A stretch of DNA of 64,000 bases from Candidatus Kaiserbacteria bacterium (GTDB lineage: Bacteria; Patescibacteriota; Minisyncoccia; Phycocordibacterales; UBA918): the NCBI GenBank assembly GCA_031430855.1, contig JANPCG010000006.1:2531-66530 (forward strand). Direction: 5' to 3'. The notes under the pieces were generated by a model, which worked only from the letters and a program-made list of their open reading frames with translations, had not been told where the DNA came from and searched no databases. Position numbers and translations under genes: made by a program. This document shows positions 1 to 64,000 of the stretch, one piece after another. The number at the start of each line of letters is the position of its first letter. The stretch's first letter is position 1.

Positions 1-909
1 ATCAAAACGAATGTTGCGGAGTGGCTCGAACAGATTCGTCCGCTGATGGACTTTGACGCAACAATAAATCCCCCCCAGGTGAAATTTAATGGTGACTGGT
101 TATCGAAACTCACCATGGCAGATTTGATTAACCTTACCTCAATGGTCACGGTGCAGCAGATGCTCGAACGGGATATGTTCGAGAAGCGTCTGAAAGAAGA
201 AAAACCAATCCATTTGCACGAATTTTTATACCCACTCATGCAGGGGTACGATAGTGTTGCCATGGAGGTTGATGCTGAGCTGTGTGGGACTGATCAGACC
301 TTTAACGCACTCATGGGGCGCACCCTGATTAAAAATCTTAAAGGTAAAGATAAGTTTGTCGTGACTGTGAATCTGATGGAGAATCCAAAGACGGGTGAAC
401 TAATGTCCAAGAGTCGGGGAACTGGGGTATTTTTAAATACCGACGCCTTCAATAAGTACGGCGCTATTATGACGCAGCCGGACGAGATGATTGACATTAT
501 TCTGGTCAATAACACTCGTCTCGAGCTCGAGGAAATTGCTGAAATCATGAAAGCACCAAATCCACGCGACGCCAAGATGCGGGCAGCCTTTGAAGTAACT
601 AAAATTTTCCACGGTGAAGCAGCAGCGATAGAAGCAGCTGAACGATTTGTACAATTGGTACAGAAGGGAGGAACAGCCGAGAATGTACCCGAGGTACAGG
701 TGAGCGGTTCGGAAATGACAGTTTTTGCCCTCGTGCGCGAAGTCATAACGGACGAAACCAGTACGGAACTCCGACGTTTAATTGAACAAGGCTCGGTCAA
801 AATTAATGGAGAGAAGTACGCAGACCGTGACCAGGTAGTTACCATTCCGGTAGAAGGTATTGATTTGAAAGTAGGGAAGAAACTGTGGTTTAAAGTAAAG
901 ACAGCGTAA
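1..909 (+). CDS. tyrS: Tyrosyl-tRNA synthetase, C-terminal part (5' end outside window)
   Basis: Frame is open from nt 1. Class I KMSKS motif (LMSKSRG), YPLMQGYD motif, C-terminal S4-like domain. Confidence 0.9.
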   Translation: MKTNVAEWLEQIRPLMDFDATINPPQVKFNGDWLSKLTMADLINLTSMVTVQQMLERDMFEKRLKEEKPIHLHEFLYPLMQGYDSVAMEVDAELCGTDQTFNALMGRTLIKNLKGKDKFVVTVNLMENPKTGELMSKSRGTGVFLNTDAFNKYGAIMTQPDEMIDIILVNNTRLELEEIAEIMKAPNPRDAKMRAAFEVTKIFHGEAAAIEAAERFVQLVQKGGTAENVPEVQVSGSEMTVFALVREVITDETSTELRRLIEQGSVKINGEKYADRDQVVTIPVEGIDLKVGKKLWFKVKTA

Positions 910-1107
910 CGTGGGAGACGGATCCCTAAATAGCCGTAATTTCTCGATTTTTTAAAAAAACGCAACTAAAATTGGACGGGGTCAATAGACATTGAGTAAA
1001 TGATAAACCGAGTGATTTCAACCTTAGATTACCCATTCAGCTATATTTTAGGCCATATAATTATACGTTGCGCACTTTAGAGACAGTGGTAGGATGAGGA
1101 CATCCCT

Positions 1108-1536
1108 ATGTCACTCTTTCCCGAATCAAAACTCCATACCCTACTCAAGACTCGCCTCGATACTCTGAAGTGTGAGCTCGAACGACTATCAGTGCGCCAA
1201 ATGGCGGTAACTCGCTTACGACACGCGGCAATTCTCCACAAGAACGCGGAAGGTATTGAAGACGAAGAAGACGAGGCAGTCGACGCCTTGATTGCCAGTA
1301 TCGATGCGGTTGATTTTGATCTCGCCATTTTTAGTGGGCAGTTACATGACCGCCAAAAGCACCTCTCGAAAGGAATCGCTCTCCTTAATGCTTCATCCGT
1401 TGACTCATTTAGAGAGCTGCTCACTGAACATTTTATCGACGAAGCCAATTTAGCAATCCGTGACGCCAAAGTCGCTCGCAAAGGCTACGACGAACTCATT
1501 GCCGATTTACAGACCATCACCGTCCAGCCAAATTAA
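1108..1536 (+). CDS. hypothetical protein
   Basis: 142-aa ORF, weak SD (aggatgagga), no recognisable motif. Confidence 0.35.
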   Translation: MSLFPESKLHTLLKTRLDTLKCELERLSVRQMAVTRLRHAAILHKNAEGIEDEEDEAVDALIASIDAVDFDLAIFSGQLHDRQKHLSKGIALLNASSVDSFRELLTEHFIDEANLAIRDAKVARKGYDELIADLQTITVQPN

Positions 1537-1686
1537 ATGTAATTACATTTAAAGCTGCACCGGGGTCTGCCCTGGGCAATTTCTACTTTCAGTATGTATC
1601 TGCAGAGGCCTTTCCTCCACAAACAAAATCGTCTCACACAAATGTGAGGTGCATTTTGAAACAGTAATTCACTACACGTTTCGTAG

Positions 1687-3336
1687 TTATTTACGCAGGG
1701 GAATCTCGGCGACCACATCACTTGAGAACTGGCCAGACTCCAAACGGAATCGAGTTGCGTCAGCTTTTCCTCGCTCGCCACCCCAGGTCTCGGGTGAAGT
1801 GGCAAAACGCACCCCGCGATCAGTAGGGAACACTTGAATACTTTCAACCGCTCCGTAAATATCAACTGACGACTGGACACCAGAAGCAGCGAGTTCTTTT
1901 CCGAGCTGACTGACAACTGACTCGTTACCAATTTGTACTTTATTACCCTCGTCATCCAAATCATACTGTGGGGTTTCGGCGGCCATTTGGCACGTTACCA
2001 GGATTATCTTCTTACGTCCTTCATCTTGTGGATCATCATCAACACCACGACTAGGTTGCATGTAATTTTCGACGACTCGCGCGAGCCCGCTCATATCATG
2101 CATCGGGGCGTCAATCCGATTTCGTCCCGTCTCAGCAAATGAAGTATTTTTGGCTTCAGTCACTCTTTTTCCATCAGTCACGAGCCAGCGGTCTTTTTTA
2201 ACTTCAGGGTTACGATCATCAGAAATAACAAAACCACCAGCCGAACCGTGCGCAGCAATAGCAACCGTGGCTGGTTTGATCCCGGCTTTTTGCAGTTGCA
2301 CAAACGCCCGATAGATATCTGCCGGGTTTGCTATTTCAAAGAAGAGAGTACGCCCTGAACCATTCGTATCATCAAATGTCTTTGCCCATTCACGCATCAG
2401 GGAGTTATCGCTATCATACCGATTTACAAACAGCACCGAAACATCCCGCTCGCGTAATTCCTCGGACATTTCCTCTGGTTCGGTTATAAGTCGCTCCATT
2501 CGTTCGAGTTGTTCGATGGAATAACTTTCGATACCGATGATGCCAGTTGCCTTGGTCATGGCGCGAAGACGTTCTATGCCGAAGTGGTCGAGACGAGCAA
2601 CTAAATCTATAACCATCTCATCACCATAGCCATGGATAGTGCTAAAGGCGTAATCCGTAACATCAGTTTCAGACAAGCCATAACTATTAACTAAAATTTG
2701 TTCAACCAAAGTTTTCCGCACTTTTTCACTACCGAGTGCACTGGCCTCATCAAAAGAAAAAAGTGCGGTCTGCATCGCTGCTATGACTTTAGGATTACGC
2801 ATTTCTTTACGAACTAATTCAGCGTATGGTGCTCCCTTAAGGGCAAAGAGTTGCGTTGTTTTTTCAAGACCAAACGTATGTTGCACAATTTCAAGCATTT
2901 TTTCACTCGGCTCGGACGCAAGTGCCGTTAGAATAGTTTGACGCACCGGACCGTTCTCAGGCTCAGAAATTACAACTTGAGAAATTTGTTCAGGTGACAG
3001 TCCATAGGTTGCTGATGAAAAACGACTTGCTTCAGATACCGGACGGACATTCTGTGTATCGTAATTTGCATAAAGGCGCTCGTCCAGTCTTTGGAACCTT
3101 GTTTTTATCTCTATAAACCGAGCAATATCTGCTGGGTTTTCTAGCTTATGCTCTAAATCACCGGGAACTGGTTTTTCATACCACCAGTCAGGCAGACGAG
3201 ACATGGTCTCATCCGAAAGCATTTCAACTTCTAACGCATCTATCTTTGTTTGCAGCAAATCAATGTCGTCATTAACTGGTGATTCTGAAAGCTGTTCAGG
3301 TTTGGCTTGTTTATAAGGAGCCTCAAAAAAGTCCAT
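1687..3336 (-). CDS. hypothetical 549-aa protein; C-terminal half has a caspase/CHAT-like His-Cys dyad arrangement
   Basis: Long ORF sharing a divergent promoter region with ychF. 'VAIAAHGSAGGFVISDD' is followed about 90 aa later by 'KKIILVTCQMAAE', a hydrophobic strand followed by Cys. Confidence 0.6.
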   Translation of the reverse strand: MDFFEAPYKQAKPEQLSESPVNDDIDLLQTKIDALEVEMLSDETMSRLPDWWYEKPVPGDLEHKLENPADIARFIEIKTRFQRLDERLYANYDTQNVRPVSEASRFSSATYGLSPEQISQVVISEPENGPVRQTILTALASEPSEKMLEIVQHTFGLEKTTQLFALKGAPYAELVRKEMRNPKVIAAMQTALFSFDEASALGSEKVRKTLVEQILVNSYGLSETDVTDYAFSTIHGYGDEMVIDLVARLDHFGIERLRAMTKATGIIGIESYSIEQLERMERLITEPEEMSEELRERDVSVLFVNRYDSDNSLMREWAKTFDDTNGSGRTLFFEIANPADIYRAFVQLQKAGIKPATVAIAAHGSAGGFVISDDRNPEVKKDRWLVTDGKRVTEAKNTSFAETGRNRIDAPMHDMSGLARVVENYMQPSRGVDDDPQDEGRKKIILVTCQMAAETPQYDLDDEGNKVQIGNESVVSQLGKELAASGVQSSVDIYGAVESIQVFPTDRGVRFATSPETWGGERGKADATRFRLESGQFSSDVVAEIPLRK

Positions 3337-5830: not shown

Positions 5831-6781
5831 ATGTCCATGAAATATGCTGCCACACTGCGTTTCGGTAGTTTCAATACCTGGTCTGGGTGCATCCCCGGGA
5901 GTGCCGGCCAACGTGATCACATCGTTGATTTCATTGTCGACTTGGCGCATACGTTTGATTATTTGGTGCTGCACGAAGTGCATGTCTCAAATGATTCCCA
6001 AACGGAACGGTTTGTGCCGCCACGCTCACCTGGACACCGTCCCGGTCCGCTTGACCTCAAGCTCGGTAACCGCTTGATGGATCGCCTCAAAACGACCCAT
6101 CGATACATGTTTGCGCCACACTTTAATGTGACAGCATTGCATGACTATGAAGCAACAGATCTGCCCGTGTATTACGGCAATCTGGTTCTCATTAAACGCC
6201 AGGTGGCGATAGTGCGTAACGAGGTTGCTCTGATTTACGGGATTGGGAACGTTAATACCGAAACACTCCACCGAGAGACAGGACACGTTACTGGTCGAGC
6301 TGGCTCACGGAAGGCGAACGTAACCACCATCGACACCGGATATGGTCACGTTACCGTAGCAGGAGTGCATGGTCTTCACTCACGAGCCGGGAAGATCGAC
6401 AGCCCCGCTCGCAATGCGCAATCGTCCCAAATTGCTGCCGTGATTGCTCAGCAACGAAAGTTGCTAAAGCTCTCAGGGGACGAACCACACTCGCTTGTGC
6501 TTGGTGATTTAAACCTCACTTCAGAGAACGACGCTTTGCGGAAACTTTTGGAAAACCCCTCTGCGTTTGGGTTTAGCCGCGGGATCAATCTCAATGATCA
6601 GTTCAATATCACTAACACCAGGACAAAGTGGTACCCCAAGTCTAAGTCCAGCCGCGAAGCAAACTTTGCACTTGCTTCGGTAGGGTTGGCAGAGCAAGTA
6701 ACCAAATACGTCGTCCAAAGAAAGACGCCGTCTGACCATGGGTACACCGACCTCACCATCGAAAAAAAGCCAGGCACCTAA
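5831..6781 (+). CDS. Endonuclease/exonuclease/phosphatase (EEP) family protein
   Basis: LVLGDLNLTSEND and C-terminal SDHGYTDLTI motifs typical of the EEP fold. ggagg RBS at 5824-5828; start is ATG 5831 or 5837. Confidence 0.7.
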   Translation: MSMKYAATLRFGSFNTWSGCIPGSAGQRDHIVDFIVDLAHTFDYLVLHEVHVSNDSQTERFVPPRSPGHRPGPLDLKLGNRLMDRLKTTHRYMFAPHFNVTALHDYEATDLPVYYGNLVLIKRQVAIVRNEVALIYGIGNVNTETLHRETGHVTGRAGSRKANVTTIDTGYGHVTVAGVHGLHSRAGKIDSPARNAQSSQIAAVIAQQRKLLKLSGDEPHSLVLGDLNLTSENDALRKLLENPSAFGFSRGINLNDQFNITNTRTKWYPKSKSSREANFALASVGLAEQVTKYVVQRKTPSDHGYTDLTIEKKPGT

Positions 6782-8125: not shown

Positions 8126-10972
8126 ATGCATAAAAAATTTGATTCCACCCAGATTGAAAAGAAATGGCAAGAGCGATGGAAAGAAAGTGGAATCTATACC
8201 GTCGGAGAACGAGACGTAACAAAACCTAAAGAGTATGTCCTGGTTGAATGGCCGTACCCGTCAGGAAACCTCCACATTGGACACTGGTATGCCTTTGCCG
8301 TCCCTGATATCTATGCGCGCTTTAAGCGCATGAAGGGAACCCAGGTCTTATTTCCGATGGGTTTTGACGCCTTTGGACTCCCGGCAGAAAATGCGGCTAT
8401 TAAGCGCAATTTAGATCCTAAGGCGTGGACGAACGACAACATCGCCTACATGCGTGAACAACTCATTTCAATGGGCTGCAGTTTTTCCTGGGACAAAACC
8501 GCCAATTCGACTGATGCTGACTATTACAAATGGACCCAGTGGATGTTCACGCAGTTTTTTGAGCGGGGAATTGCGTATCGTGGTAAGGGAGTGGTTAATT
8601 GGTGTCCGGGATGTAACACAGTGATTGCAAACGAACAGGTACTAACTGACGGAACCTGTGAACGCTCAGGTGATGTGGTAGAGAAGCGAGAAATGCCGCA
8701 ATGGATGCTCAAGATTACAGAGTATGCTGACCGTCTGACTGATGACCTCAATGCGCTTGATTGGCCAGAACATATTAAAGAAGCCCAGCGGCAGTGGATC
8801 GGCCGCAGTCGCGGGGCGAAGATTGATTTTAAGCTTTCAACTGGTGACACTGTTACCGTATTTACTACTCGACCTGACACGTTATTCGGAGCAACATATG
8901 TTGTCCTTGCACCTGAACACCCACTTCTACAAAATGACAAGGTACGAGGCGAGACCTCGAACTTGACGGAGGTTAATAATTATATTACTACTGCGAAGCA
9001 AAAAGATGAACAAGATCGGCTCGATGCCACAAAAGAAAAGACTGGGGTAAAACTCGAAGGGATTACCGCTATTAATCCCGCGAGCGGGGAAGCGATTCCC
9101 GTCTACGTGGCCGACTATGTACTCGGCGGGTATGGCACCGGAGCCATTATGGCCGTACCAGCGCATGATGAACGAGACTATGCCTTTGCAACGAAGTTTG
9201 GGCTACCAATAAAACAAGTAGTTGTGCCGTGTGCTAATGATTCAAAAAACCCACCGCAGTCTGGGTATGAAGAAGTAAAACGAGATACTGTCATCATACA
9301 TCTACGCGACAAGAGTACCGGTAAATTTGCACTCTTAAATTGGCACGGTACTCTCGAAGGAATCACTACAGCAATTATGGGTGGTATTGAAGAAGGGCAA
9401 ACTCCAGAGGAAGCTGCGCTAGCGGAAATAAAAGAAGAAGCTGCTCTAGATAATGTAAAAATCGTTCATTCACTCAAATGGATTACCGCGGCAAAATATT
9501 GCGCCTCACATAAAAAACAAAATCGCTGTGCCCACACCTATACCTTTTTAGGTGAAGTAGAAAATCTCGAACAGCAGGGCTCTATTCCAGAAGCAGAAAA
9601 TTCTCTACATACGTTAGTCTGGGTAGAAAAGACTCAGGTTCTCGCTAAACTTACACCTGATCATCAAAAGCAGGTTTGGGAATTACTCCAAAAGGATACC
9701 GTTTTGACCGGAGCTGGCTATTTAATGAACTCAGGTGAATTTAATGGAATGGATTCAGACGAAGCGAAGGAAAAAATTGTTGCGCAAGTGGGAGGGGAAA
9801 TGACCTCAACCTATCGAATTCGTGATTGGTCAATTGGACGACAGCGATACTGGGGTGTTCCGATTCCAATTGTATATTCACCAGAAGGAGTAGCTCACAT
9901 TGTTCCTAAGGAACATTTGCCGTGGGTACTCCCCGAAGACGTCGATTTTAAACCGACCGGTGTCGCGCCACTCGCTAAAAGTGAAGCGCTAAGGAAACGA
10001 ACTGAGGAAATCTTTGGTGTTGGATGGACACCGGAAGTCGAAACCATGGATACGTTTGTCGATTCATCATGGTATTTCCTACGGTATCTTGATAACGCGA
10101 ATCCTGACTCTCTCTCATCGCTTGAAGCCCAAAAGAACTGGATGCCAATCGATATCTACTTTGGAGGGGCTGAACACACCACAATGCACTTACTCTACTC
10201 GCGCTTCTGGCAAAAGGCACTCTTTGACCTGGGGCTCGTGACTGAAACAGAACCCTATCGTCGACGAATTAACCGTGGACTCATCCTTGGGCCAGACGGA
10301 AACAAAATGAGCAAGAGCAAAGGCAACGTCATCGATCCTGATGCCCAGGTAGCTTTGGTCGGGTCAGACACGGTCAAAATGTACCTCGCCTTTATGGGAC
10401 CATACGAGGGAAGCAACTACCCGTTTGACCTCGGTGGAATTGCTGGTTTGCGTCGTTTCTTGGAGCGTGCGTACGGGCTACGTGATCATATTATCCCGAA
10501 TGAACCACTCACTGTCACCAAGCAACTCCACAAAACCATTGCCAAAGTAAACACTGATATTGTTGAATTTAAGTTCAATACGGCCATTAGTGCCATGATG
10601 ATATTTGTAAATCTCGCCGAAAAGGAAGGGTTAACCGAAGAAACTTACCGAATGTTTACACGACTTTTAGCACCATTTGCCCCGCATATTACTGAAGAAA
10701 TCTGGACTGAATTGGGGGAGACAACATCAATCCACTTAACGGAGTACCCGACGGCAAACCCGGAACTGGCACGCGATACTGAAGTTGTTATTGGAGTGCA
10801 AATTAACGGTAAATTACGAGGAGATATCACACTTAGCCCAAACGCAAGCGAAGCGGAAGCACTCAATATGGTAAAAGAAAATCCTGTTCTCAGGACCAGG
10901 CTAGAGGGAATCACACCGAATAAAGTCATCTACGTGCCCGGGAAAATCATCAACCTCATCCTTCCGACCTAG
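8126..10972 (+). CDS. leuS: Leucyl-tRNA synthetase with a roughly 160-aa Nudix-like insertion
   Basis: HIGH (NLHIGHWYAF) and KMSKS motifs; colinear with bacterial LeuRS except for extra sequence between ...KFGLPIKQVV and GAGYLMNSGEFNG. Confidence 0.95.
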   Translation: MHKKFDSTQIEKKWQERWKESGIYTVGERDVTKPKEYVLVEWPYPSGNLHIGHWYAFAVPDIYARFKRMKGTQVLFPMGFDAFGLPAENAAIKRNLDPKAWTNDNIAYMREQLISMGCSFSWDKTANSTDADYYKWTQWMFTQFFERGIAYRGKGVVNWCPGCNTVIANEQVLTDGTCERSGDVVEKREMPQWMLKITEYADRLTDDLNALDWPEHIKEAQRQWIGRSRGAKIDFKLSTGDTVTVFTTRPDTLFGATYVVLAPEHPLLQNDKVRGETSNLTEVNNYITTAKQKDEQDRLDATKEKTGVKLEGITAINPASGEAIPVYVADYVLGGYGTGAIMAVPAHDERDYAFATKFGLPIKQVVVPCANDSKNPPQSGYEEVKRDTVIIHLRDKSTGKFALLNWHGTLEGITTAIMGGIEEGQTPEEAALAEIKEEAALDNVKIVHSLKWITAAKYCASHKKQNRCAHTYTFLGEVENLEQQGSIPEAENSLHTLVWVEKTQVLAKLTPDHQKQVWELLQKDTVLTGAGYLMNSGEFNGMDSDEAKEKIVAQVGGEMTSTYRIRDWSIGRQRYWGVPIPIVYSPEGVAHIVPKEHLPWVLPEDVDFKPTGVAPLAKSEALRKRTEEIFGVGWTPEVETMDTFVDSSWYFLRYLDNANPDSLSSLEAQKNWMPIDIYFGGAEHTTMHLLYSRFWQKALFDLGLVTETEPYRRRINRGLILGPDGNKMSKSKGNVIDPDAQVALVGSDTVKMYLAFMGPYEGSNYPFDLGGIAGLRRFLERAYGLRDHIIPNEPLTVTKQLHKTIAKVNTDIVEFKFNTAISAMMIFVNLAEKEGLTEETYRMFTRLLAPFAPHITEEIWTELGETTSIHLTEYPTANPELARDTEVVIGVQINGKLRGDITLSPNASEAEALNMVKENPVLRTRLEGITPNKVIYVPGKIINLILPT

Positions 10973-10987
10973 GTTTGTGGCGATGTG

Positions 10988-11016
10988 TTGACGTAAATCA
11001 ATTGGCATGATATAAA
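10988..11016 (+). promoter_or_regulatory. sigma-70-like promoter TTGACG-17-TATAAA
   Basis: Seen directly upstream of 11082. Confidence 0.4.
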
Positions 11017-36629: not shown

Positions 36630-37350
36630 CTAAACTTAGGGGTGTCACCCCTAAGTTTATTCAAAAAGGATTTTATCTTGTTTGATTGCTTTTCTCTTCT
36701 CATAAATACTTTTTGCCAAAATGACACTTTCATCAAAGTTATATTGTGTATCAAGCTGCATGTTTATTATTTTACTTTTGGCTAATCCTTGATAGTGGAG
36801 TGAACTTGAATGACAAATTTCACGCTCAGCTATAAGATTGTGTACAAATTGATTTTCATTTACATAGACGAATAAATATTGATATTGTTCCTGTCTCTCA
36901 ATATGAACTCTTTTAAATGATCCTTGAAAAAGTGCCCCCGAACGTTCATATTTTTGATTAAAATAATTTGCATACCCACCACCAACTCTGCGCATAAATT
37001 CACTGATACCTGATTCAGTTACGGATTTTATAATTAAATGAAAATGATTAGGAAGAAGTGCATATGCTTGAATATCTACTAATCGATTTCCCTGGAATGA
37101 ATCTGTTGAATTATTTACTTTAGTGCGTACAAAATCAAAATTTACTATAGCCTCTTCTGAATTAAATAAGTTAAGTGATTGGTAAAAACGTAAGTAATCA
37201 CTTTTATCAAGAAAAATATCCCGTTTATCGACTCCGCGGTTAAACACATGATATGTCTCGCCTTCAATAATTGGAACGATTTTTTGTGGCATATAATTTT
37301 TATTCTGTATTAATTATACAAAACTTAGGGGTGTCACCCCTAAGTTTTCA
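36630..37350 (-). mobile_element. Minimal IS200/IS605-type or RAYT-like element: HUH Y1 transposase gene bounded by identical 27-bp palindromes
   Basis: aaacttaggggtgtcacccctaagttt at 36632-36658 and again at 37321-37347; lower GC than the flanks. Confidence 0.75.
36657..37292 (-). CDS. tnpA: IS200-like / REP-associated tyrosine (Y1, HUH) transposase
   Basis: HVFNRG, HUH motif LPNHFHLII and GALFQGSFK typical of IS200/IS605 TnpA and RAYT. Confidence 0.85.
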   Translation of the reverse strand: MPQKIVPIIEGETYHVFNRGVDKRDIFLDKSDYLRFYQSLNLFNSEEAIVNFDFVRTKVNNSTDSFQGNRLVDIQAYALLPNHFHLIIKSVTESGISEFMRRVGGGYANYFNQKYERSGALFQGSFKRVHIERQEQYQYLFVYVNENQFVHNLIAEREICHSSSLHYQGLAKSKIINMQLDTQYNFDESVILAKSIYEKRKAIKQDKILFE

Positions 37351-40486: not shown

Positions 40487-41143
40487 ATGAGAATTGTAGC
40501 TATTCAAAAAAACCAGAGTATTACCCGATCTGTTGGGGCAGTACTTGGGTACAGCGGCGCCGTAACAAGTGCTACCGCGTACACATGGTACGCTATCTAC
40601 CTGATGCAAGGTGAGGCTGATACCAACGTAATCACATGGACCCTTTGGGCACTCGAATCTGTCCTAAGCTTCTTCATTTACAGGAGGCAGACCGGAAACG
40701 ATTTTGCCAGCTATCTTGAAGAGGCAGTCGCATCGTTGGGATGTATTTCAATCACCCTACTGATGACTTTTCGAGCCATTTGGTTTGATGCGGACATATT
40801 TGGTCCGCTCGAGTGGATTGACGGAATTAGTGCCGTCCTGTTCTTGTGGGTGCTAAAGGTATATCGTCGCACAGAAAGAACTGGAGATGTTTGGCCTGCC
40901 ACCTTGTGGTTCCAAGTACTACTGGTTGTCAGTTCACTTCCACTGGTTCGGTCAACATGGGAAAACCCACACGGCGAACCGCTCTGGCCATGGGTGATAT
41001 GGTCAACGGGGTTTGCATTACAGCTTACCTGCGCATATCTCAGGAGAGAAGGGAAGAGTTTCCGCACTTTGCTTACACCTTTCAATTATTTCTTCTGGCA
41101 CGCAGCAGTTGGCGTGATAGTAATGACCTCGGGCGCCGCATAA
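40487..41143 (+). CDS. hypothetical polytopic membrane protein
   Basis: agaggagg SD; about 6 TM helices. Confidence 0.6.
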   Translation: MRIVAIQKNQSITRSVGAVLGYSGAVTSATAYTWYAIYLMQGEADTNVITWTLWALESVLSFFIYRRQTGNDFASYLEEAVASLGCISITLLMTFRAIWFDADIFGPLEWIDGISAVLFLWVLKVYRRTERTGDVWPATLWFQVLLVVSSLPLVRSTWENPHGEPLWPWVIWSTGFALQLTCAYLRREGKSFRTLLTPFNYFFWHAAVGVIVMTSGAA

Positions 41144-41168
41144 ATCATGCGGCGCCCACTTTTTTTAT
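41136..41168 (+). terminator. intrinsic terminator gggcgccgcat-aaatc-atgcggcgccc plus T7
   Basis: Seen directly. Confidence 0.65.
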
Positions 41169-41213
41169 TCTAAATTTTACTTCAAAAAGTTAAAATAATT
41201 TTGCTTTTAAAAA

Positions 41214-42050
41214 CTAGTTATTTTGACTTGAAATCAATCTACTGTCAAAGGCACAAACACCATACGAAATTGCAGACATTGCCGTGGTAAATAAAAGATC
41301 AGAAATACCTCCAGGTACAAAGGTTTCTAGGGTTGTTTGATACGAAAACGAGAAATCAGCAAAATAGTTAAAAATAAAACCAGCCAACAACACATATATA
41401 GCTAGTCTAAACTTACCGCCAAAATATTTAAATGATAAACCGTAAATGATAGTAGCGAGTGTCAGTATCACAACATCACCAATCGGATAGGCTAAATCAA
41501 AAAATATTTTTATAGAATCTTCTGAAGAGCTGATTACTCCGTCTCGAGCAACTACTACAAGTAAATAATACGAAAATGCGATTGCAATAATTGGTATAAC
41601 TAAAATCATTATTTTACTAGAAAAAGTATGGAGTGCAGTTTTAACACCAGTTGCACGTGATAAATACACCATACCAATTCCCCAAAGTGGCCAACTAACT
41701 ATAAAGGCAACATCAGCCAATGAAGGATAGGGCACTTCAACTCCCAACAATAAATTATAGTACCCAGCAAAAATTAGTTCACCAACTCCCCAACTAATAA
41801 GACCTGCTGATAAAAATAAAACCGATCGACCAATCACACTTCGTAACCCACCCCATCTCTTTGCTTGGAACAACCCATACAATCCTGCGGCAAGGGGTAT
41901 CAACCCTTCTAGTACTGTATATAAATAATTTGATAAAGTAACATTGTCGCCACTTTTATCTAACAAAAACCACCAAACTATTGAAAAAAAATATACAGCG
42001 ACTAATATTTTAGTTGCATTATTTGGTAAAAATGTGTGAGCGTAGTTCAT
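41214..42050 (-). CDS. hypothetical polytopic membrane protein (about 8 TM), AT-rich island
   Basis: Hydrophobicity pattern; low GC. Confidence 0.6.
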   Translation of the reverse strand: MNYAHTFLPNNATKILVAVYFFSIVWWFLLDKSGDNVTLSNYLYTVLEGLIPLAAGLYGLFQAKRWGGLRSVIGRSVLFLSAGLISWGVGELIFAGYYNLLLGVEVPYPSLADVAFIVSWPLWGIGMVYLSRATGVKTALHTFSSKIMILVIPIIAIAFSYYLLVVVARDGVISSSEDSIKIFFDLAYPIGDVVILTLATIIYGLSFKYFGGKFRLAIYVLLAGFIFNYFADFSFSYQTTLETFVPGGISDLLFTTAMSAISYGVCAFDSRLISSQNN

Positions 42051-42069
42051 AAAAACTTCATAAATTGTA

Positions 42070-42846
42070 CTACTTTAGCTTAACTCGCGCAAACATAATA
42101 CTGACAAAACCTTCATTTTCACAGTCAGGAACACTATGAGTTTCAATTAAAATATCTTCAATATTATTATTTCCAGCAATAATTGCTTCCCTCAAGTCAA
42201 CTTCATTTACGTTTGCACAAGGAAAATACTTATCCCCAACACGATACATTTTACAATTCCGTAGTGCACTAACAAGCACCAAACCTTTCGGGGAAGCTAG
42301 GGAGAGTAAATTTTTTATATAATTTTTCCACTCAGACTTTGAGCTAGTGATCGATTCAGCACAAAATAGAGATGTAACTAAATCATAATCAGTACAAATA
42401 GTAGAAAGCGGTGACTCTTTAGTTATGTCGCCGAAGAGTGTTTGCGTAAGTTTTAGTTTCAAATCGTTAGATCTATTTATTACATTTTGTGGGGAAGGGA
42501 CTACACCTTCTTTAGAAAGGATGTACTTAGTACATTCATCCCAATTAAACGCATCGTTTTTATTATCAACCCATTTTGATATTTCTAAAAGGTTTTTCTC
42601 TAAATAATCAGAAACATGCAGTTCATTCACATAAGGAGCAACCGCGAGCGCACCAAATAGAGTTGGACCTGAACCAAATTCTAATGCCTTTTTGAATGGA
42701 GTTCCTTTATATGAGTTTAATGTTTCTACAATAAAATCGAGAGTTTTATAAGTATCACTTGCAGGAGAAGCGTAGTATGTACTTAAGTACCTACTTGCAT
42801 TCCAATCACCCCAACCAGAAATTTCATTAACTATTGTTTGACTCAT
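42070..42846 (-). CDS. NNMT/PNMT/TEMT-family (PF01234-like) SAM-dependent small-molecule methyltransferase
   Basis: SRYLSTYY, LEFGSGPTLFGALAVAPYVNELHVSDYLEKNLLEISKWV...AFNWD and C-terminal NEGFVSIMFARV parallel human NNMT blocks (RDYLEKYY, IDIGSGPTIYQLLSACE...TDYSDQNLQELEKWL...AFDWS, NEGLFSLVARK). Confidence 0.75.
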   Translation of the reverse strand: MSQTIVNEISGWGDWNASRYLSTYYASPASDTYKTLDFIVETLNSYKGTPFKKALEFGSGPTLFGALAVAPYVNELHVSDYLEKNLLEISKWVDNKNDAFNWDECTKYILSKEGVVPSPQNVINRSNDLKLKLTQTLFGDITKESPLSTICTDYDLVTSLFCAESITSSKSEWKNYIKNLLSLASPKGLVLVSALRNCKMYRVGDKYFPCANVNEVDLREAIIAGNNNIEDILIETHSVPDCENEGFVSIMFARVKLK

Positions 42847-43125
42847 GTAGATTTTATTATATCTGCACTAGATTTGTTTTGTTATAACCTGCCTAACCAT
42901 TAAATTCTAGTGCTTTAAAACGAACAACTAATTTAACTAGTACGGAATTGTTTTTAACCCTAGACTAATTAAATTTTAATGTTGCTCAACAAATTAATAA
43001 ATATTACAATAATATACGCTGAATTTTAAAATTGTCAATAGCATACTCAAGATAGACAAAAAACGTACAACGTTATATTCTTTTCAAAATTATGATAGTA
43101 TTAAAACAACTATCCTATTTTAGTC

Positions 43126-43419
43126 ATGAACACAAATCTTTTACAAGAATTGACCGTACGGATTATCCGTGAACAGGAGCTTGTAATTGGACCCTTGGCC
43201 TGGATTGAGGCTGCCAAAGTACCTGGACTTTTAGTAATTGATCAACGGGTAGGAACTATAATGTTTACTGAACAGGACAATGCAATCGTTATTAATAAAC
43301 TTGTCGCACAATACGAAAAACTCTTTGGTAGGGCTTCACATGAGGTATCTAAAGATGCAGTTAAAAGTTTAATTGCGAATGTACCGCTCGAGGAAATTCC
43401 AAGCAGCTTGCGTCCATAA
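43126..43419 (+). CDS. hypothetical protein
   Basis: 97-aa ORF directly upstream of the GAF kinase. Confidence 0.4.
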   Translation: MNTNLLQELTVRIIREQELVIGPLAWIEAAKVPGLLVIDQRVGTIMFTEQDNAIVINKLVAQYEKLFGRASHEVSKDAVKSLIANVPLEEIPSSLRP

Positions 43420-43430
43420 CATTTGCCACC

Positions 43431-44744
43431 ATGACTCCAGAAGAACAACTCCGCCTCACAAATGAGACACTGTATAAACATAGTCATGAACTTGCAGTAA
43501 AGAACAAGGTATTGTCATTCCTCGGGAGACTTTACGAAATTAGTACATTAACACTCACTCAAAAACAACTTGCCGAACAAGTAGCTGTTGCACTACAGGC
43601 TGAGTTTGACTTTGAAATGGTAGGCATCTACCAATTTTTTAAGGAAACTGATGATTTAGTACCTTTATCAGTAGTTTTATCAGAACGAATTCGCGATATA
43701 TCACAAAATCAGTTCGACATCTTACATTTTTCAAATGTATCTCAATACAATTTTTTACATTCGGTGATTTCAAAAGAAATCATGCATTATTCTGAAAAGT
43801 TAAGTGACGTCTGGAATCATCCTGAATTGCAAGAAATCTGTTCTAAAATTGAAACTGAAAAGTATATTAGGTCTTCACTTGGATACCCACTTATTATTGG
43901 ACATGAAGTGATTGGGGTTGTACTTATTAGCTTAAATAGAACATATAAAGATCTCATTGATTATGAACGTGATTCAATGCTCAATTTTATGAACGTGATT
44001 TCAATCACGCTCAACCGTGTGACTCTTTATGAAGAACTTGAGCTTGCAAATAAACGACAAGAAAATCTTATTCACTTTATTACTCACGAAGTTAAGGGTT
44101 ATCTTACAAAAAGCCAAGCTGTTTTTGCTGCAATTTCTGAAGGTGATTTTAAGGGTGTTCCAGATAACCTGATGAACTTAGCTGTGAGAGCATTGGCTGA
44201 AACGCGAAATGGTGTAGAAACTGTTACCAACATCCTAGAAGCTTCTAACCTCAAGAAGGGGACAACTCAATACACACAAAATTCTTTTGATTTTAAAAAA
44301 CTTATTGATGAAGCAATAGAAAGTTTTCAACCAGCAGCCACAGAAAAAGGGCTGGTGATCACAGGAGATACTACTAATGAATCATATCCATTTTTAGGTG
44401 ACGAAAAGAAGATATCGCGTCATCTTATACGAAACTTAATTGATAACGCTATTCGTTATACACCAAATGGATCAATTTCTATATCCTTACGTAAAACAGA
44501 TTCAAGTTATCTTTTTACCGTACAAGATACAGGCGTGGGAATAGACGAAGAGGATATAGGGAGGCTTTTTGTTGAAGGAGGAAGAGCGAAGGATTCAATA
44601 AAAGTGAACGTTGATTCAACTGGCTATGGGCTTTTTATTGCAAAAATGATTGTTGAGGCACATCATGGAAATATCTGGGTAGAATCAGAAGGACGTGGAC
44701 ATGGATCCACATTCACTGTTACTTTTCCACAACCCAAAGGATAG
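43431..44744 (+). CDS. Cytoplasmic GAF-domain sensor histidine kinase
   Basis: H-box ITHEVKGYLT; HATPase_c N, G1 and G2 boxes (LIDNAIRYT, VQDTGVGI, GYGLFIAK); no TM. Confidence 0.85.
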   Translation: MTPEEQLRLTNETLYKHSHELAVKNKVLSFLGRLYEISTLTLTQKQLAEQVAVALQAEFDFEMVGIYQFFKETDDLVPLSVVLSERIRDISQNQFDILHFSNVSQYNFLHSVISKEIMHYSEKLSDVWNHPELQEICSKIETEKYIRSSLGYPLIIGHEVIGVVLISLNRTYKDLIDYERDSMLNFMNVISITLNRVTLYEELELANKRQENLIHFITHEVKGYLTKSQAVFAAISEGDFKGVPDNLMNLAVRALAETRNGVETVTNILEASNLKKGTTQYTQNSFDFKKLIDEAIESFQPAATEKGLVITGDTTNESYPFLGDEKKISRHLIRNLIDNAIRYTPNGSISISLRKTDSSYLFTVQDTGVGIDEEDIGRLFVEGGRAKDSIKVNVDSTGYGLFIAKMIVEAHHGNIWVESEGRGHGSTFTVTFPQPKG

Positions 44745-44930
44745 CTTTCCTTGCTACAATAGAGACATGAACAATAGTACTCAGGCGATGTTTGTAAGAA
44801 TCTTTTTAGCTATTAGTATTCTCTGGTCAGTATGGATGATGTACTACACTCATATCATCCAACAGGATTATGAAATTTTGCAAAATCCTGATGGCATCCC
44901 GACGTTCTCTGAAGAATAAACATCTCGTAT

Positions 44931-46607
44931 ATGCCAAACATTGTTGATCCTTTAATTTGTAACTGGAGTGCCGCTGAGTACTATATTATTTCTGAGAACT
45001 TGCTCGGTAATTTCCTCTACTATTCACACCTCTTTCCCTCAATTTCTGGACTGATTATTGCCATTTTTGTATTGAAATCTAATTACCGCAATAAGGCGGC
45101 ACAGGCGCTGTTGTTTACCACCACCATGTTCAGTATCTGGTGTTACATGGCCTTAATTACCTGGGCCTCGGAACGCTCGGACGTCATCATGTTCGTCTGG
45201 TCTGCCATGATGTACCCTGAACTCTTGATGTACGTGGGTGCCTTCTATTTCGTCTACGCTTATTTCAGAAATTCTTTCCCAGGAGCGAAAATTGAGATGA
45301 TGATTTTCTTGATGTTTTCTCCACTCATTATTTATGGACATACTAAACTCAACCTGATTAATTTTGATTTCACCAACTGTGAACGCAATGCGACGGAGGG
45401 TCCCTTGTGGCAATACTATGTGTACGGATTTGAATTCCTCTTTATCGCAATTATTTTATGGCTCACCATTACTGAAATTCACAAGAAAAACCACATTGCA
45501 CGCGAAGCTTCTATCGTAGCTACTGGTATCCTCTCGTTCTTATTGTTGTTCTCGTGGCAGAATATTGTAGGAAGTTTCTTTGATAATTGGAAGATTGGTC
45601 AAATTGGGCTCTTTGGTATGCCAATCTTTGTAGCTCTTTTGGGGTACATCCTCGTTCGCTACCAAACGTTCCGCGTAAAGCTTTTGGCGACAGAGGCCTT
45701 GATGGCAGGGCAGTTGATTCTCCTAATTTCGTTGCTGTTTGTTCGAACCATTGAAAATGCGCAGATCATTGCGATTATTACCATTCTCTTCTTCTCAGTC
45801 CTTGGAGTACTTTTGGTCATGAGTGTACGGAAAGAGGTCGAGCAACGTCAACAGATTCAAAAATTAGCGACTAATCTCAAGAACACAAATGAGCAGCTTA
45901 AAATTGTTGATCGGCAGAAGTCAGAATTTGTCTCGATTGCCTCACACCAATTACGTAGTCCTCTCACGGCTATTCGGGGATACACCTCAATGATGCTTGA
46001 TGGAAACTTTGGTACCACTCCCGAAGCAATGCGCGAACCAATTGGCCGCATTCACGAGTCAGCCAAGCTAATGGCGCTCTCGATTGAAGACTTCCTCAAC
46101 GTTTCTCGAATCGAATCAGGTAATATCAAATACGACAAAGTTGATTTTAATCTCAGAGATCAGGCGGAACATATCGTAGACGATTTGCGCCCTGAAGCGA
46201 TCCATAACGGCATCATGATGGTATTCAGGAGCAATCTCACGAGTAACGGTGTGGTAAACGCAGATGTCGGAAAGACTCAGCAAATTCTCCATAATCTGAT
46301 TAATAACGCTTTGAAGTACACCAAACAGGGGAGTATCACCATATTCGTACATGAGGACCTTAAGCTCAAGAAGTTATACGTTGAAATTATTGATACTGGT
46401 ATCGGTATGAGTGCCGAAACTATCAGCGGATTGTTCCAGAAATTTGCCCGCGCCAAGAACGCGAACAGTATCAACATAACCGGAACCGGACTCGGATTAT
46501 TTGTGGCCAAAGAAATGGCAGTAGCAATGGCTGGTGATATCAGTGCCTTCTCAGAAGGAGAAGGTCATGGTTCCCACTTTGTACTCACTCTTCCATTGGT
46601 GAACTAA
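44931..46607 (+). CDS. Membrane sensor histidine kinase with N-terminal multi-TM sensor domain
   Basis: About 7 TM helices, then H-box FVSIASHQLRSPLTAIRGY and HATPase_c (LINNALKYT, IIDTGIGM, GTGLGLFVAK). Confidence 0.85.
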   Translation: MPNIVDPLICNWSAAEYYIISENLLGNFLYYSHLFPSISGLIIAIFVLKSNYRNKAAQALLFTTTMFSIWCYMALITWASERSDVIMFVWSAMMYPELLMYVGAFYFVYAYFRNSFPGAKIEMMIFLMFSPLIIYGHTKLNLINFDFTNCERNATEGPLWQYYVYGFEFLFIAIILWLTITEIHKKNHIAREASIVATGILSFLLLFSWQNIVGSFFDNWKIGQIGLFGMPIFVALLGYILVRYQTFRVKLLATEALMAGQLILLISLLFVRTIENAQIIAIITILFFSVLGVLLVMSVRKEVEQRQQIQKLATNLKNTNEQLKIVDRQKSEFVSIASHQLRSPLTAIRGYTSMMLDGNFGTTPEAMREPIGRIHESAKLMALSIEDFLNVSRIESGNIKYDKVDFNLRDQAEHIVDDLRPEAIHNGIMMVFRSNLTSNGVVNADVGKTQQILHNLINNALKYTKQGSITIFVHEDLKLKKLYVEIIDTGIGMSAETISGLFQKFARAKNANSINITGTGLGLFVAKEMAVAMAGDISAFSEGEGHGSHFVLTLPLVN

Positions 46608-60999: not shown

Positions 61000-61030
61000 A
61001 AACTCCGTACGGGAGTTTTTTGTTTTATAA
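61000..61030 (+). terminator. hairpin aaaaaactccgtacgggagtttttt with long T-run
   Basis: Perfect stem; lies in a gene-free AT-rich spacer. Confidence 0.5.
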
Positions 61031-61697
61031 AAAATTTTTTTATAAAATTCAAAAATATATTTACCGTAAGTGGGGGAGCCACCGATATTTTAATGACATA
61101 CTTCAAACAGGTACAAGTCCCCTATCTATATTTATATTTTTCAGCACGTACATTCACTCTGTGTACCCTGTCCACAACTACGATGACCACATTAGCGCTC
61201 TTACTTACACTAACAAAGTATTTTTCAAATCAGATAGTAATATCGACTTTAACAGATTTTTAAAGACGATAATACCTACCAGTCAAAACCACCTTCGACC
61301 CGATCCGTTACCTGACCAAAATTTATGATGTATAGAATGCATCATCTAAAACTCTGCAAGGGCCTTAGAATCGAATTTTGAGCCTCATGCGGATGGCCTC
61401 AGGAGAGAAAAAAGAGGTACTAAGGTACCAGGGTAAAATATTGAATATTGAAAATAAAGAAAATGTAATTACGTAAATTAATTAGAAACTAAAAAAGTTA
61501 AGAAAAGAATAAATACAAAATGATGTAAAGCTTTAAAAGAGAAATAAACTAATATATGACGGTATTGTTAAACCATTATTTAAAAGGCTCGGTGGGGCTG
61601 GGGATACCAAAGATGCAGAATACCGTTATTTTATATATAATACTGAGTATTAGAGTTATTATACTCAGTTATTAGTTACATAAGAGGGTACTCCCCT

Positions 61698-62657
61698 TTG
61701 ATACAATATATCAATATGAACCACCTGCCTCTCATCGACGATTTCCTTTTGCACATTCAAGCCAATAACTACTCCCCCGAGACGTTGTACAACTACGAAC
61801 GTGACCTCGATACCTTTGCGCATTTTTTAACTGATGAACTCAGTGGACTCGATTTCAGTAAAATTACCAAAAAGACTATCGAGCAGTATAAGGCCTACCT
61901 CAACTCCCCCACTCGCAAGACCTCGGCCGGGAGCGAGTCTGAAGTGAAGTTAAAAAGTGGGTCCATTAATCGTCACCTGACGTCGCTCAGACGTTACCTT
62001 GGATTCCTGATGGATATGGATGAGACCGTACCTGTCCCCCCCACTGCTATCAAGCTCCTCCGCATGCAAAAGCCAACTGGTCAATTACTTGAGTTGAATG
62101 AATTGATTAAACTCATTGAAGCGCCGAGCACACTAGAAAAAGATGAATATGTCGCAGTCCGCAACCGCGCCCTCCTTGAAACTCTGTTTGCGAGCGGCAT
62201 GCGTATCTCGGAACTGATTAGTCTCAAAATTAGTCAACTTGATCATACGGGTAAAATATACATTTTAGGAAAAGGTCGTAAGCAACGTTTCATCTACCTC
62301 ACTCCCCGCGCTGAAGGCTACATCCGTGCGTATCTAAAAATGCGTGATGACGACTGTCCGTATATGTTTGTTGCACAGCGGGGCCTGAACGCGAAAGACC
62401 TCAAAAAACACATCTCTGCCAATTACCTCCAGATGAAAATTAAATGGTACCGTGAACTCTTGGGTATCAGTATTCCGACGAGTGCTCACTCACTACGCCA
62501 CGGTTTTGCGACCTATCTCGCTGAACAAGGCGCCAATCCGGCTGCTATCCAAGTCCTATTAGGTCACGAATCACTCGAGACCACGTCCCGTTACGTACAT
62601 GCGAGCGACCGCTACGCCGAAACCACCCACAATCAATTCCATCCACTAAAGGAGTAG
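61698..62657 (+). CDS. Tyrosine site-specific recombinase/integrase (XerC/XerD-like)
   Basis: Catalytic R...HxxR...Y region HSLRHGFATYLAEQGANPAAIQVLLGHESLETTSRYVH. Confidence 0.9.
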   Translation: MIQYINMNHLPLIDDFLLHIQANNYSPETLYNYERDLDTFAHFLTDELSGLDFSKITKKTIEQYKAYLNSPTRKTSAGSESEVKLKSGSINRHLTSLRRYLGFLMDMDETVPVPPTAIKLLRMQKPTGQLLELNELIKLIEAPSTLEKDEYVAVRNRALLETLFASGMRISELISLKISQLDHTGKIYILGKGRKQRFIYLTPRAEGYIRAYLKMRDDDCPYMFVAQRGLNAKDLKKHISANYLQMKIKWYRELLGISIPTSAHSLRHGFATYLAEQGANPAAIQVLLGHESLETTSRYVHASDRYAETTHNQFHPLKE

Positions 62658-63259: not shown

Positions 63260-63313
63260 ATGTGTTTAAAGATAAAATTTTGTGTTTTTTTGAAATGTAA
63301 GACACTAATTCAT

Positions 63314-63904
63314 TTATATACCTTGTAGTAAATGGCTATAGGCCTGAAACTTACTTTCTACTCTTTGAATGAGCATTTCTTCAACCTCTTTCGGCTCACC
63401 ATCAACCGAACCGTGATAATCAACGTAAACTACTGAATCTACATGATCAATTAAATCTTTAGTAAGCGGTTTCATTTCAATTAAAAAGCTAACTATGGCT
63501 GTTTTGGCATCTTCAAATTCAAACCCTTCTCCTTCGAGAAGCTGGGCGGAGGAATTAACTTTTTCTTGATTTAGGTTTGTAAAAATAGTAATAAGATTGT
63601 CTTTTGTTACTGTTTCGTCAACCTGCTCTAATTTATAAACTTCATGTAAAGCGGCAATGTAATAAATAAGTCGTTTAGAATCCTCTGTAATGACAGCATT
63701 GGCAAAATCCAAATTTCGCACCCCTCCAAACTCCAAATCAAGCTGCTTTATTTGATTCTTCACTTCCCATACCTGATCTTCATTATCATCTCTAAAGTTT
63801 GGATACCACTTCTTCAGCTCTTCAATTTTTGCAGACCCTTTTTCTGCCCACCCCTTATCTGCGCGTACTGAATTAAAGGAGTAATAGGTTATATCGAAAC
63901 TCAT
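63314..63904 (-). CDS. hypothetical protein
   Basis: 196-aa ORF; no motif. Confidence 0.45.
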   Translation of the reverse strand: MSFDITYYSFNSVRADKGWAEKGSAKIEELKKWYPNFRDDNEDQVWEVKNQIKQLDLEFGGVRNLDFANAVITEDSKRLIYYIAALHEVYKLEQVDETVTKDNLITIFTNLNQEKVNSSAQLLEGEGFEFEDAKTAIVSFLIEMKPLTKDLIDHVDSVVYVDYHGSVDGEPKEVEEMLIQRVESKFQAYSHLLQGI

Positions 63905-64000
63905 ACGTTTTAAATTGATTTATTTATAACACTAAACTACACATTCGGATACTTCTGCTTTCTTGCCTCTGTATACAAAAACCACTGTTTGGCTACTTCC

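Follow-up and report, generated by a model that had tools for sequence, protein, structure and literature searches.

A methyltransferase of the NNMT/PNMT/TEMT family as a very probable part of a conserved sensor-kinase module in Candidate Phyla Radiation bacteria

What is the role of a methyltransferase resembling mammalian nicotinamide N-methyltransferase (NNMT) that is encoded beside a polytopic membrane protein and two histidine kinases in the genome of a Candidatus Kaiserbacteria bacterium? The question is raised by a 64,000-nucleotide stretch of contig JANPCG010000006.1 (assembly GCA_031430855.1), which was analysed as a whole and is called the window below. The window also matches contig JAYTDW010000006.1 of assembly GCA_043735715.1, in reverse orientation. 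An earlier, sequence-only reading took the methyltransferase and its membrane neighbor for a horizontally acquired methylation and export module of eukaryotic type. The present analysis indicates with high confidence that the methyltransferase is one part of a conserved sensor-kinase module of Candidate Phyla Radiation (CPR) bacteria. The core of this module, as defined by gene order and fusion proteins, consists of a membrane protein with eight transmembrane helices (8-TM protein), a small soluble protein and the histidine kinase HK1. These ultra-small organisms account for much of the diversity of bacteria. They spend their lives attached to other cells, and hardly any sensing systems can be recognised in them.

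The locus and its genes

The genes of the module and the spacer between its two halves are the following (aa, amino acids; SAM, S-adenosylmethionine; GC, G+C content as a fraction).

41214..42050, minus strand: 8-TM protein, 278 aa, uncharacterised family, putative membrane sensor/transducer (AlphaFold2 model, homologs, fusions)
42070..42846, minus strand: methyltransferase, 258 aa, predicted to be SAM dependent, NNMT/PNMT/TEMT family, PF01234 (Pfam, phmmer against PDB, AlphaFold2 model, Foldseek)
42847..43125: divergent intergenic spacer, 279 bp, GC 0.247, separating the minus-strand and plus-strand halves of the module
43126..43419, plus strand: 97-aa soluble protein, uncharacterised family, putative adaptor (adjacency, fusions)
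43431..44744, plus strand: HK1, 437-aa cytoplasmic histidine kinase with a GAF-like region, a DHp domain with its His, and HATPase_c (Pfam, alignment to L063)

The two minus-strand open reading frames (ORFs), their shared orientation and all sequence motifs quoted in the sequence-only reading are present in the translations. The methyltransferase and 8-TM genes are 19 bp apart. In the window and in the related locus L005, the module is split in two, with the methyltransferase followed by the 8-TM protein on the minus strand, and the small protein, HK1, a short ORF (orf50), the second kinase HK2 and TrpRS in this order on the plus strand. The plus-strand half is tightly packed, with gaps of 6 to 22 bp (11 bp from the 97-aa ORF to HK1, 11 bp before HK2 and 6 bp from HK2 to TrpRS). 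The best promoter-like match of the region lies in the divergent spacer on the minus strand (TTGACA-16/18-TATATT/TATTAT, 43038->43009); it is a consensus match only, at 11 of 12 positions.

Conservation of the module and fusion proteins

The locus survey comprised 83 loci around the 8-TM gene, 78 of them non-redundant and nearly all from Patescibacteria. A homolog of the 97-aa ORF adjoined the 8-TM gene in 75 of the 83 loci, almost always directly downstream. An HK1-type kinase was encoded near the 8-TM gene in 65, usually right after the gene for the small protein, so that the usual order is 8-TM protein, small protein and kinase on one strand.

The same partners are also found joined in single proteins. 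In L031, L049, L072 and L081, the 8-TM protein carries the small protein as a C-terminal domain (BLASTP E 2e-20), and in L063 the 8-TM domain is fused to GAF, HisKA and HATPase domains (Pfam). Residues 11-434 of HK1, whose HATPase_c domain scored 90.2 bits in Pfam, align with the cytoplasmic part of the L063 fusion (E 1e-40). The His box THEVKG of HK1 is aligned to SHELRT of the L063 HisKA domain, with the phospho-acceptor His in register. A further type of fusion joins an NB-ARC/STAND NTPase to a C-terminal 8-TM domain (L048:459-2639 and L056:1380-3725 by Pfam, L077:2127-4448 by similarity). The L048 protein and two tandem proteins at L068:5521-8105 have an N-terminal extension that by eye is helix-turn-helix-like and has no Pfam match. 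The 8-TM domain thus occurs both free and joined to differing signalling modules, and in the fusions it occupies the position of the sensor. By the positive-inside rule both ends of the 8-TM protein are cytoplasmic (N-in/C-in), a topology that is compatible with fusion at either end. In the literature available for searching, nothing relevant was found on signalling modules of CPR bacteria, on bacterial proteins of PF01234 or on fusions of decarboxylase and SET domains.

The sequence-only reading had described two orphan sensor kinases following the methyltransferase. HK1 and HK2 are both present, and CheY and PhoB probes found no receiver domain in the 64-kb window, but HK1 and the 97-aa ORF, which had been overlooked, form part of the module core, and a reading of HK1 as an orphan is not supported. 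In related loci the same probes found 23 receivers, about 12 of which are CheY-like single-domain proteins encoded directly after the kinase. HK2 contains HisKA (57.8 bits) and HATPase_c (80.7 bits) domains by Pfam. Its N-terminal domain recurs beside the module in L005, L043 and L074, and in L043 it is joined to an HK1-like cytoplasmic part.

Some relatives depart from the usual arrangement. In L005, the closest relative, the HK1 ortholog (597-2657, minus strand) carries a 257-aa N-terminal extension, which by eye consists of two transmembrane segments around an extracytoplasmic domain, and its gene is separated from that of the small protein by an inserted aldehyde dehydrogenase gene. Both the extension and the inserted gene are absent from the window. 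Neither this extension nor the N-terminal domain of HK2 showed similarity to the 8-TM protein, and both were rejected as its relatives. In the close relative L008, the gene after the small protein (10204-10998) encodes a second, unrelated class I methyltransferase (CMAS/UbiE-like) in the place of a kinase; the contig stops just past this gene.

The 8-TM protein and the small protein

The eight transmembrane helices proposed for the membrane protein were borne out by its AlphaFold model (pLDDT 86.7). The most conserved motifs (VPYPSxAD, FFDLAYPxGD, ADFxFSYxTT and D251) are located at the outer face. The protein is built of repeated helical hairpins, and its cytoplasmic loops KRWGG, SRATG and KYFGG are conserved.

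The 8-TM and small-protein families correspond, as judged by the following searches, to no described family. A Pfam scan of 47 members of the 8-TM family gave no match at E<=1, only scattered noise, and a profile search of PDB gave no sequence relative. Foldseek comparison of the model with PDB returned only generic 7-TM bundles (E >= 0.028). Accordingly, no transporter family or fold was found by Pfam, PDB sequence or Foldseek searches, and the protein did not match MASE1/8TMR-UT, 7TMR-DISM, 5TMR-LYT or other membrane receptor models in Pfam. The 97-aa protein is 86% identical in L005; its family had no match in Pfam (E<=1) or, by profile, in PDB, and its assignment to a known domain was rejected. 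The sensor position in the fusions and the lack of transporter similarity do not agree with the export role originally proposed, and the 8-TM protein is somewhat more probably a sensor than a carrier.

At least 435 homologs of the 8-TM protein were found, and every named one belongs to Patescibacteria. A scan of species-representative genomes gave 73 loci from Paceibacteria-type, Microgenomates-type and other CPR groups; in some of the records the depositors have given the label 'Saccharibacteria' or 'Gammaproteobacteria'. The scan also gave two weak matches in Nitrososphaeria. These archaeal homologs (L082 and L083, at about 5938-6771; 29% identity, E ~1e-16) are accompanied by neither the small protein nor a kinase, and a protein of about 406 aa is encoded upstream of them.

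The methyltransferase

The methyltransferase matched PF01234 as its sole Pfam family, with E 4.5e-35; its score of 121.6 bits exceeds the cutoff of 25, and the match spans profile positions 15-258 of 261. This confirms the family proposed from the motifs over a generic class I SAM methyltransferase. The translation holds YLSTYY, EFGSGPT, SDYLEKNLLEISKW...AFNWD and NEGFVSIMFAR. Its best sequence matches in PDB (phmmer) were mouse and human NNMT, INMT and PNMT (E 3e-20 to 1e-14), and its AlphaFold model (pLDDT 88.3) had the same three enzymes as top Foldseek matches (TM-score 0.80-0.84, E ~1e-21).

Across 16 CPR orthologs, G58/G60/P61/T62 (GxGPT), D80, N85, D140 and Y20 are invariant or nearly so. 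The equivalent of Asp197 of NNMT is Ser193 in the window and Ser, Thr, Ala or Gly, never Asp, among the 16 orthologs. Asp197 and Tyr20 of NNMT have been reported to be indispensable for nicotinamide methylation (PMC8956669). Because the SAM-binding residues and Tyr20 are kept and Asp197 is replaced, the protein looks active as a SAM-dependent enzyme, and nicotinamide is an unlikely substrate. The pair of residues that marks nicotinamide N-methyltransferase proper (EC 2.1.1.1) is retained only at Tyr20. Of the pyridine, amine or thioether substrates proposed earlier, a small-molecule amine is plausible.

Among NCBIfam models, the methyltransferase scored 87.2 bits against GntF (NF041360), above the cutoff of 60, as a partial match (profile positions 25-254 of 273), and 70.4 bits against the SCO2525-family methyltransferase (NF040568), below the cutoff of 240. 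GntF is a predicted N-methyltransferase that serves to make pre-guanitoxin, L-arginine being the starting compound of the pathway (PMC10673588). Judged by Pfam families, no gnt-type genes were apparent among the called genes within about 10 kb of the methyltransferase, which encode kinases, tRNA synthetases, peptidases and chaperones. A GntF/guanitoxin role was rejected on this gene context, although the NCBIfam cutoff was passed. Two homologs from Abditibacteriota and Anaerolineae (P0290 and P0308) have already been named GntF by the NCBI pipeline; this naming is probably an over-annotation, and the 60-bit cutoff appears permissive.

The methyltransferase had been described as eukaryote-type and rare in bacteria. 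An exhaustive search for relatives gave 1387 clusters (50% identity) at E<=1e-3, and the best 150 of these all scored at least 112 bits, compared with 76 bits for mammalian NNMT. The named relatives belong to Patescibacteria, Anaerolineae and Abditibacteriota. With 150 listed relatives outscoring mammalian NNMT and the named ones bacterial, a eukaryotic origin and bacterial rarity were both rejected; the closest relatives appear to be bacterial, and a eukaryotic source is not indicated. A word-indexed search found 8 relatives of the methyltransferase and more than 435 of the 8-TM protein. The enzyme is a new bacterial member of PF01234, neither NNMT proper nor demonstrably GntF.

Three relatives from apparently high-GC organisms (P0191, P0206 and P0215) have a hydrophobic N-terminal extension of about 180 aa, in which no known (Pfam) domain was found. 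By eye these proteins look membrane anchored and would be membrane-tethered NNMT-like enzymes.

Enzymes encoded upstream of the 8-TM gene

The pairing of methyltransferase and membrane protein is conserved elsewhere. An NNMT-like methyltransferase was found in 16 of the 78 non-redundant loci, directly upstream of the 8-TM gene and co-directional with it in 15 and 0.5 kb upstream in L074. A SET-domain protein was found in 20 of the 78 loci and was confirmed by Pfam on representatives. The two types never occurred in the same locus (0 of 78; hypergeometric P 0.0046, not corrected for phylogeny). A decarboxylase was found in 19 loci, of the PF02784/PF00278 type in 15 and the OKR_DC_1 type in 4. 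In six operons the order is decarboxylase, methyltransferase, 8-TM protein and small protein, mostly followed by the kinase (L023, L025, L027, L035, L046 and L048). A carbamoyltransferase of the NodU/CmcH type was encoded near the 8-TM gene in 10 loci; in nine of these its gene was the immediate, divergent upstream neighbor. At least one of methyltransferase, SET protein, decarboxylase and carbamoyltransferase was present in 53 of the 78 loci; a methyltransferase or SET protein was present in 36, of which 25 had no nearby decarboxylase. The 64-kb window contains no decarboxylase, SET domain or carbamoyltransferase.

Four loci encode a fusion of a PF02784 decarboxylase with a SET domain. At L016:4276-5904 (minus strand), and also in L020, L064 and L065, the fusion is a single 542-aa protein with an ornithine/arginine/diaminopimelate-type decarboxylase (PF02784/PF00278) and a C-terminal SET domain, encoded directly upstream of the 8-TM gene. 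A free amine is thereby suggested as a possible substrate of a SET domain.

The type of upstream partner tracks clades of the 8-TM tree, with the NNMT-like type in at least four separate groups. The identity matrices of the methyltransferase and the 8-TM protein are correlated (Pearson 0.66), a value reached in 0 of 2000 Mantel permutations. These comparisons point to a methyltransferase that co-diverges with its 8-TM partner and is an optional enzyme of the module.

A separate sample of 80 metagenomic methyltransferase loci, found with a narrow methyltransferase alignment, was searched for decarboxylases. In 18 of these loci a decarboxylase was encoded within 2.5 kb, and 16 of the 18 were immediately upstream on the same strand (0-15 bp apart or overlapping). 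In the farther flanks of the 80 loci (81 kb) a decarboxylase match was found in one locus only. The decarboxylases beside these methyltransferases belong to three unrelated families, namely PF02784, pyruvoyl PvlArgDC-like and OKR. In two Anaerolineae genomes (L084:5535-6765 and L086:5535-6765), the PvlArgDC-like gene overlaps the methyltransferase gene, and the pair adjoins a divergent CHASE4-HAMP histidine kinase and a response regulator.

The association with decarboxylases, which is independent of the 8-TM gene, the match to GntF and the L-arginine-derived pathway of GntF are the reasons for which we infer N-methylation of a small amine. Whether the methyltransferase acts on a decarboxylation-derived amine is evenly poised on this evidence.

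Among the other observations on these neighborhoods, the pairing of a PvlArgDC-like protein with the methyltransferase is found in about nine metagenomic contigs (L100, L143-L145, L154-L156 and L158), and in L085 the neighbor of the methyltransferase is a GGDEF/HD protein. The neighboring decarboxylases matched no model for a specific substrate, as all of them scored below curated cutoffs (best LysA-like, 195-203 bits against 298). An 'OTCase' in L009 was considered as a putrescine carbamoyltransferase, which would have provided an amine link in the window's own clade, and was rejected as PyrB (326 bits against a cutoff of 237).

The low-GC island and horizontal transfer

The module of the window lies in a region of low GC. 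Positions 41150-44749 have a GC of 0.347, compared with 0.454 +/- 0.012 in non-overlapping 3.6-kb windows (z -8.8). The sharp drop noted in the sequence-only reading is therefore real, but its end is not near 43430. The GC at third codon positions (GC3) is 0.251 for the 8-TM gene, 0.243 for the methyltransferase, 0.316 for the 97-aa ORF and 0.256 for HK1; the median of the window's long ORFs is 0.446, and the flanking genes m218 and HK2 have a GC3 of about 0.50. Since the 97-aa ORF and HK1 are low in GC3 and HK2 is not, the island comprises four genes and ends at about 44750.

In 70 other loci, from hosts of 33% to 66% GC, the difference between module and flanks was -0.013 +/- 0.032. Because the GC of the module tracks that of the host in these loci, the difference of about -0.09 to -0.10 in the window is exceptional. 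The module is also more AT rich than that of any relative in its 8-TM clade. This composition favors the horizontal acquisition proposed earlier. However, the genes of the module are found in L005 too, at the corresponding site and split in the same way; they are 61-86% identical, compared with 65-73% for the genes that flank them. The edges of the island showed no flanking repeats and no insertion scars. Since L005 carries the module at the same site with a flank-like divergence, recent acquisition is doubtful, and the co-divergence of methyltransferase and 8-TM protein also speaks against it. The GC3 of the L005 module is likewise somewhat below that of its flanks. Neither recent acquisition nor ordinary native DNA accounts well for the island.

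Proposed function and alternative explanations

The best explanation overall, to which we give about an even chance, combines an amine N-methylating enzyme with a sensor-kinase unit of 8-TM protein, small protein and HK1 to which it is tied. The methyltransferase would N-methylate a small amine of the agmatine, putrescine or cadaverine type that arises when a basic amino acid is decarboxylated. The 8-TM protein would bind the cationic product or a related amine in a pocket of acidic and aromatic character that faces outward, and would act via the small protein to control autophosphorylation of HK1. The whole might constitute a circuit of signal synthesis and receptor, or a feedback sensor for the amine. 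A bolder version, for which we would claim only a tentative standing, is a signalling system found throughout the CPR lineage, in which a receptor (the 8-TM protein, possibly of four hairpins), an adaptor of about 95 aa and a kinase are combined with interchangeable amine-modifying enzymes. The self-made signal would then serve cell-cell or symbiont-host communication.

In an alternative explanation, the methyltransferase, or elsewhere the SET protein, modifies the sensor itself: a lysine or other residue in one of the three core proteins (8-TM protein, small protein or kinase) would be methylated, and signalling would be tuned as chemoreceptors are by CheR. SET domains are classically protein-lysine methyltransferases, and lysines are available in the conserved cytoplasmic loops KRWGG and KYFGG. 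The usual position of the methyltransferase or SET gene directly upstream of the 8-TM gene, the 25 of 36 such loci without a decarboxylase and the co-divergence with the 8-TM protein would also fit this explanation. However, protein methylation is not known for any member of PF01234. The decarboxylase-SET fusions and the decarboxylase-methyltransferase operons point instead to a small-molecule substrate, methyltransferase-decarboxylase pairs exist without an 8-TM gene, and the loci with only a decarboxylase or only a carbamoyltransferase in the upstream position would be left unaccounted for. Modification of the sensor is thus considered unlikely.

The same low standing is given to the original proposal of a horizontally acquired, eukaryote-type methylation and export pair, in which the 8-TM protein exports the methylated product and the kinases are unrelated. 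The low-GC island is real, and the two genes lie side by side in one orientation and are kept together in other genomes. The link to decarboxylases recalls decarboxylase/antiporter pairs, and acidic residues in or near the transmembrane helices could form a path for cations. However, about 80% of the 8-TM genes are without an NNMT-like methyltransferase, whereas the small protein and a kinase accompany nearly all of them. The 8-TM domain is fused to kinase and STAND NTPase domains and is unlike any transporter by Pfam, PDB sequence and Foldseek comparison, and a separate candidate transporter family (m218/mem202, described below) occurs in the same neighborhood. The inclusion of HK1 and the 97-aa gene in the island, the bacterial nature of the closest methyltransferase relatives and the occurrence of the module at the same site in L005 make export by a recently imported pair an improbable explanation.

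Least probable is a role in envelope modification. As an enzyme or flippase of the membrane, the 8-TM protein would place a (methylated) amine on a lipid or surface polymer at the outer face, under regulation by the kinase. In favor of this role are the clustering of invariant motifs with Asp, Tyr, Ser and Pro on the outer side, the repeated-hairpin build and the variable small-molecule tailoring enzymes upstream, but fusion to kinase and STAND domains is typical of sensor domains and not of enzymes, the protein is unlike any known membrane transferase or flippase, and lipid or glycan genes are not recurrent in the neighborhood.

Comparison with known systems

As an amine-sensing unit with its own modifying enzyme, the module would most closely resemble the kinases that rely on a distinct co-sensor in the membrane, or the operons that combine a signal synthase with its receptor. 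Among the latter, the Ralstonia phcBSR operon encodes the methyltransferase PhcB, which makes a methyl-ester signal, and the kinase PhcS, which senses it; Bacillus comQXPA and Staphylococcus agrBDCA include polytopic receptor kinases. These systems share with the module a signal-making enzyme, a polytopic receptor and a histidine kinase in one operon. In contrast, the receptor, adaptor and kinase are here usually separate proteins, and the enzyme is an N-methyltransferase and/or a decarboxylase.

Among the systems with co-sensors, UhpC-UhpB and BceAB-BceS are similar in that a polytopic protein gives input to a kinase that has no sensor of its own. The stand-alone bacterial receptor modules MASE1/8TMR-UT, 7TMR-DISM and 5TMR-LYT are similar in that the membrane domain occurs both free and fused to various outputs. 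The 8-TM protein differs from these families by the absence of a sequence match at Pfam E<=1, by the additional protein of about 95 aa and by its near restriction to CPR bacteria. The decarboxylase systems AdiA-AdiC and CadA-CadB with CadC likewise place a basic-amino-acid-type decarboxylase beside a polytopic protein and a regulator. However, the 8-TM protein was not an APC-type antiporter by any test, a methyltransferase step is added, and the regulator is a histidine kinase.

The methyltransferase resembles NNMT, INMT and PNMT in family (hidden Markov model), predicted fold, the GxGPT motif, the acidic and Asn residues and the equivalent of Tyr20. It differs from them in being only 22-23% identical, in having Ser at the Asp197 position and in being encoded by a bacterial gene that is operonic with a sensor-kinase module. 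With GntF it shares membership of PF01234 and a bacterial origin, and the L-arginine-derived pathway of GntF is consistent with the decarboxylase link found here; the differences are the absence of gnt genes near the methyltransferase, a host that is not a cyanobacterium and the partial profile match.

The module is present in at least 73 species-level genomes and includes two families outside Pfam and PDB, and it would provide a handle on how CPR bacteria sense their surroundings or hosts. The mutual exclusivity of methyltransferase and SET protein and the three decarboxylase families predict N-methylated products of the agmatine, putrescine or cadaverine type. A noncanonical small-molecule role for bacterial SET domains is also suggested; if true, the decarboxylase-fused SET domain would methylate free amines and not proteins. 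Three likely annotation errors, 'eukaryote-like NNMT', 'GntF/guanitoxin enzyme' and 'orphan kinases', are corrected.

Flanking genes and mobile elements

The other features of the locus are the following.

40487..41143, plus strand: m218, 218-aa polytopic membrane protein of the mem202 family, convergent with the module, possible small transporter
41131..41167, plus strand: intrinsic-terminator-like hairpin (11-bp stem, 9 G-C pairs) and T-run, at the left edge of the low-GC island
41144..44750: low-GC island of four genes (8-TM protein, methyltransferase, 97-aa ORF and HK1), defined by composition
44767..44919, plus strand: orf50, 50-aa ORF with a single transmembrane segment between HK1 and HK2 (a gene in the NCBI record, with a counterpart in L005)
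44931..46607, plus strand: HK2, 558-aa membrane histidine kinase with a polytopic N-terminus, HisKA and HATPase_c (Pfam)

The strong hairpin and T-run, at 41131-41157, lie close to the terminator proposed earlier at 41136-41168. The m218 gene has a GC of 0.49, like the rest of the window. Searches of Pfam and NCBIfam with m218 gave no match. Comparison by hhalign with a 202-aa neighbor family (probability 99.9%, E 1.7e-36) placed it in the mem202 family, whose members are encoded no more than 3.5 kb from the 8-TM gene in 19 other loci. The sole matches of the mem202 profile in PDB were four SemiSWEET/MtN3 chains, which were weak and nonsignificant (E 0.12-0.63); they give a weak hint that m218/mem202 may be a transporter distinct from the 8-TM protein. 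The short orf50 had no Pfam match; the ORF that takes its place in L005 shares 42% identity with it over 40 aa (E 3.6e-11).

The mobile gene nearest to the island encodes an IS200-type Y1 transposase (36657-37292, minus strand; PF01797, 33.4 bits), about 4 kb to the left. Its GC3 of 0.197 is the lowest of the window's long ORFs. In L009 a Y1 transposase is encoded 1.7 kb from the module. Toward the other end of the window, a tyrosine recombinase gene (61698-62657, plus strand; Phage_integrase, 111 bits) lies beside low-GC patches at 61000-61500 and 63300-64000, and an ORF at 63314-63904, which has no Pfam family, has a GC3 of about 0.30. The right end of the window may hold another foreign or mobile segment.

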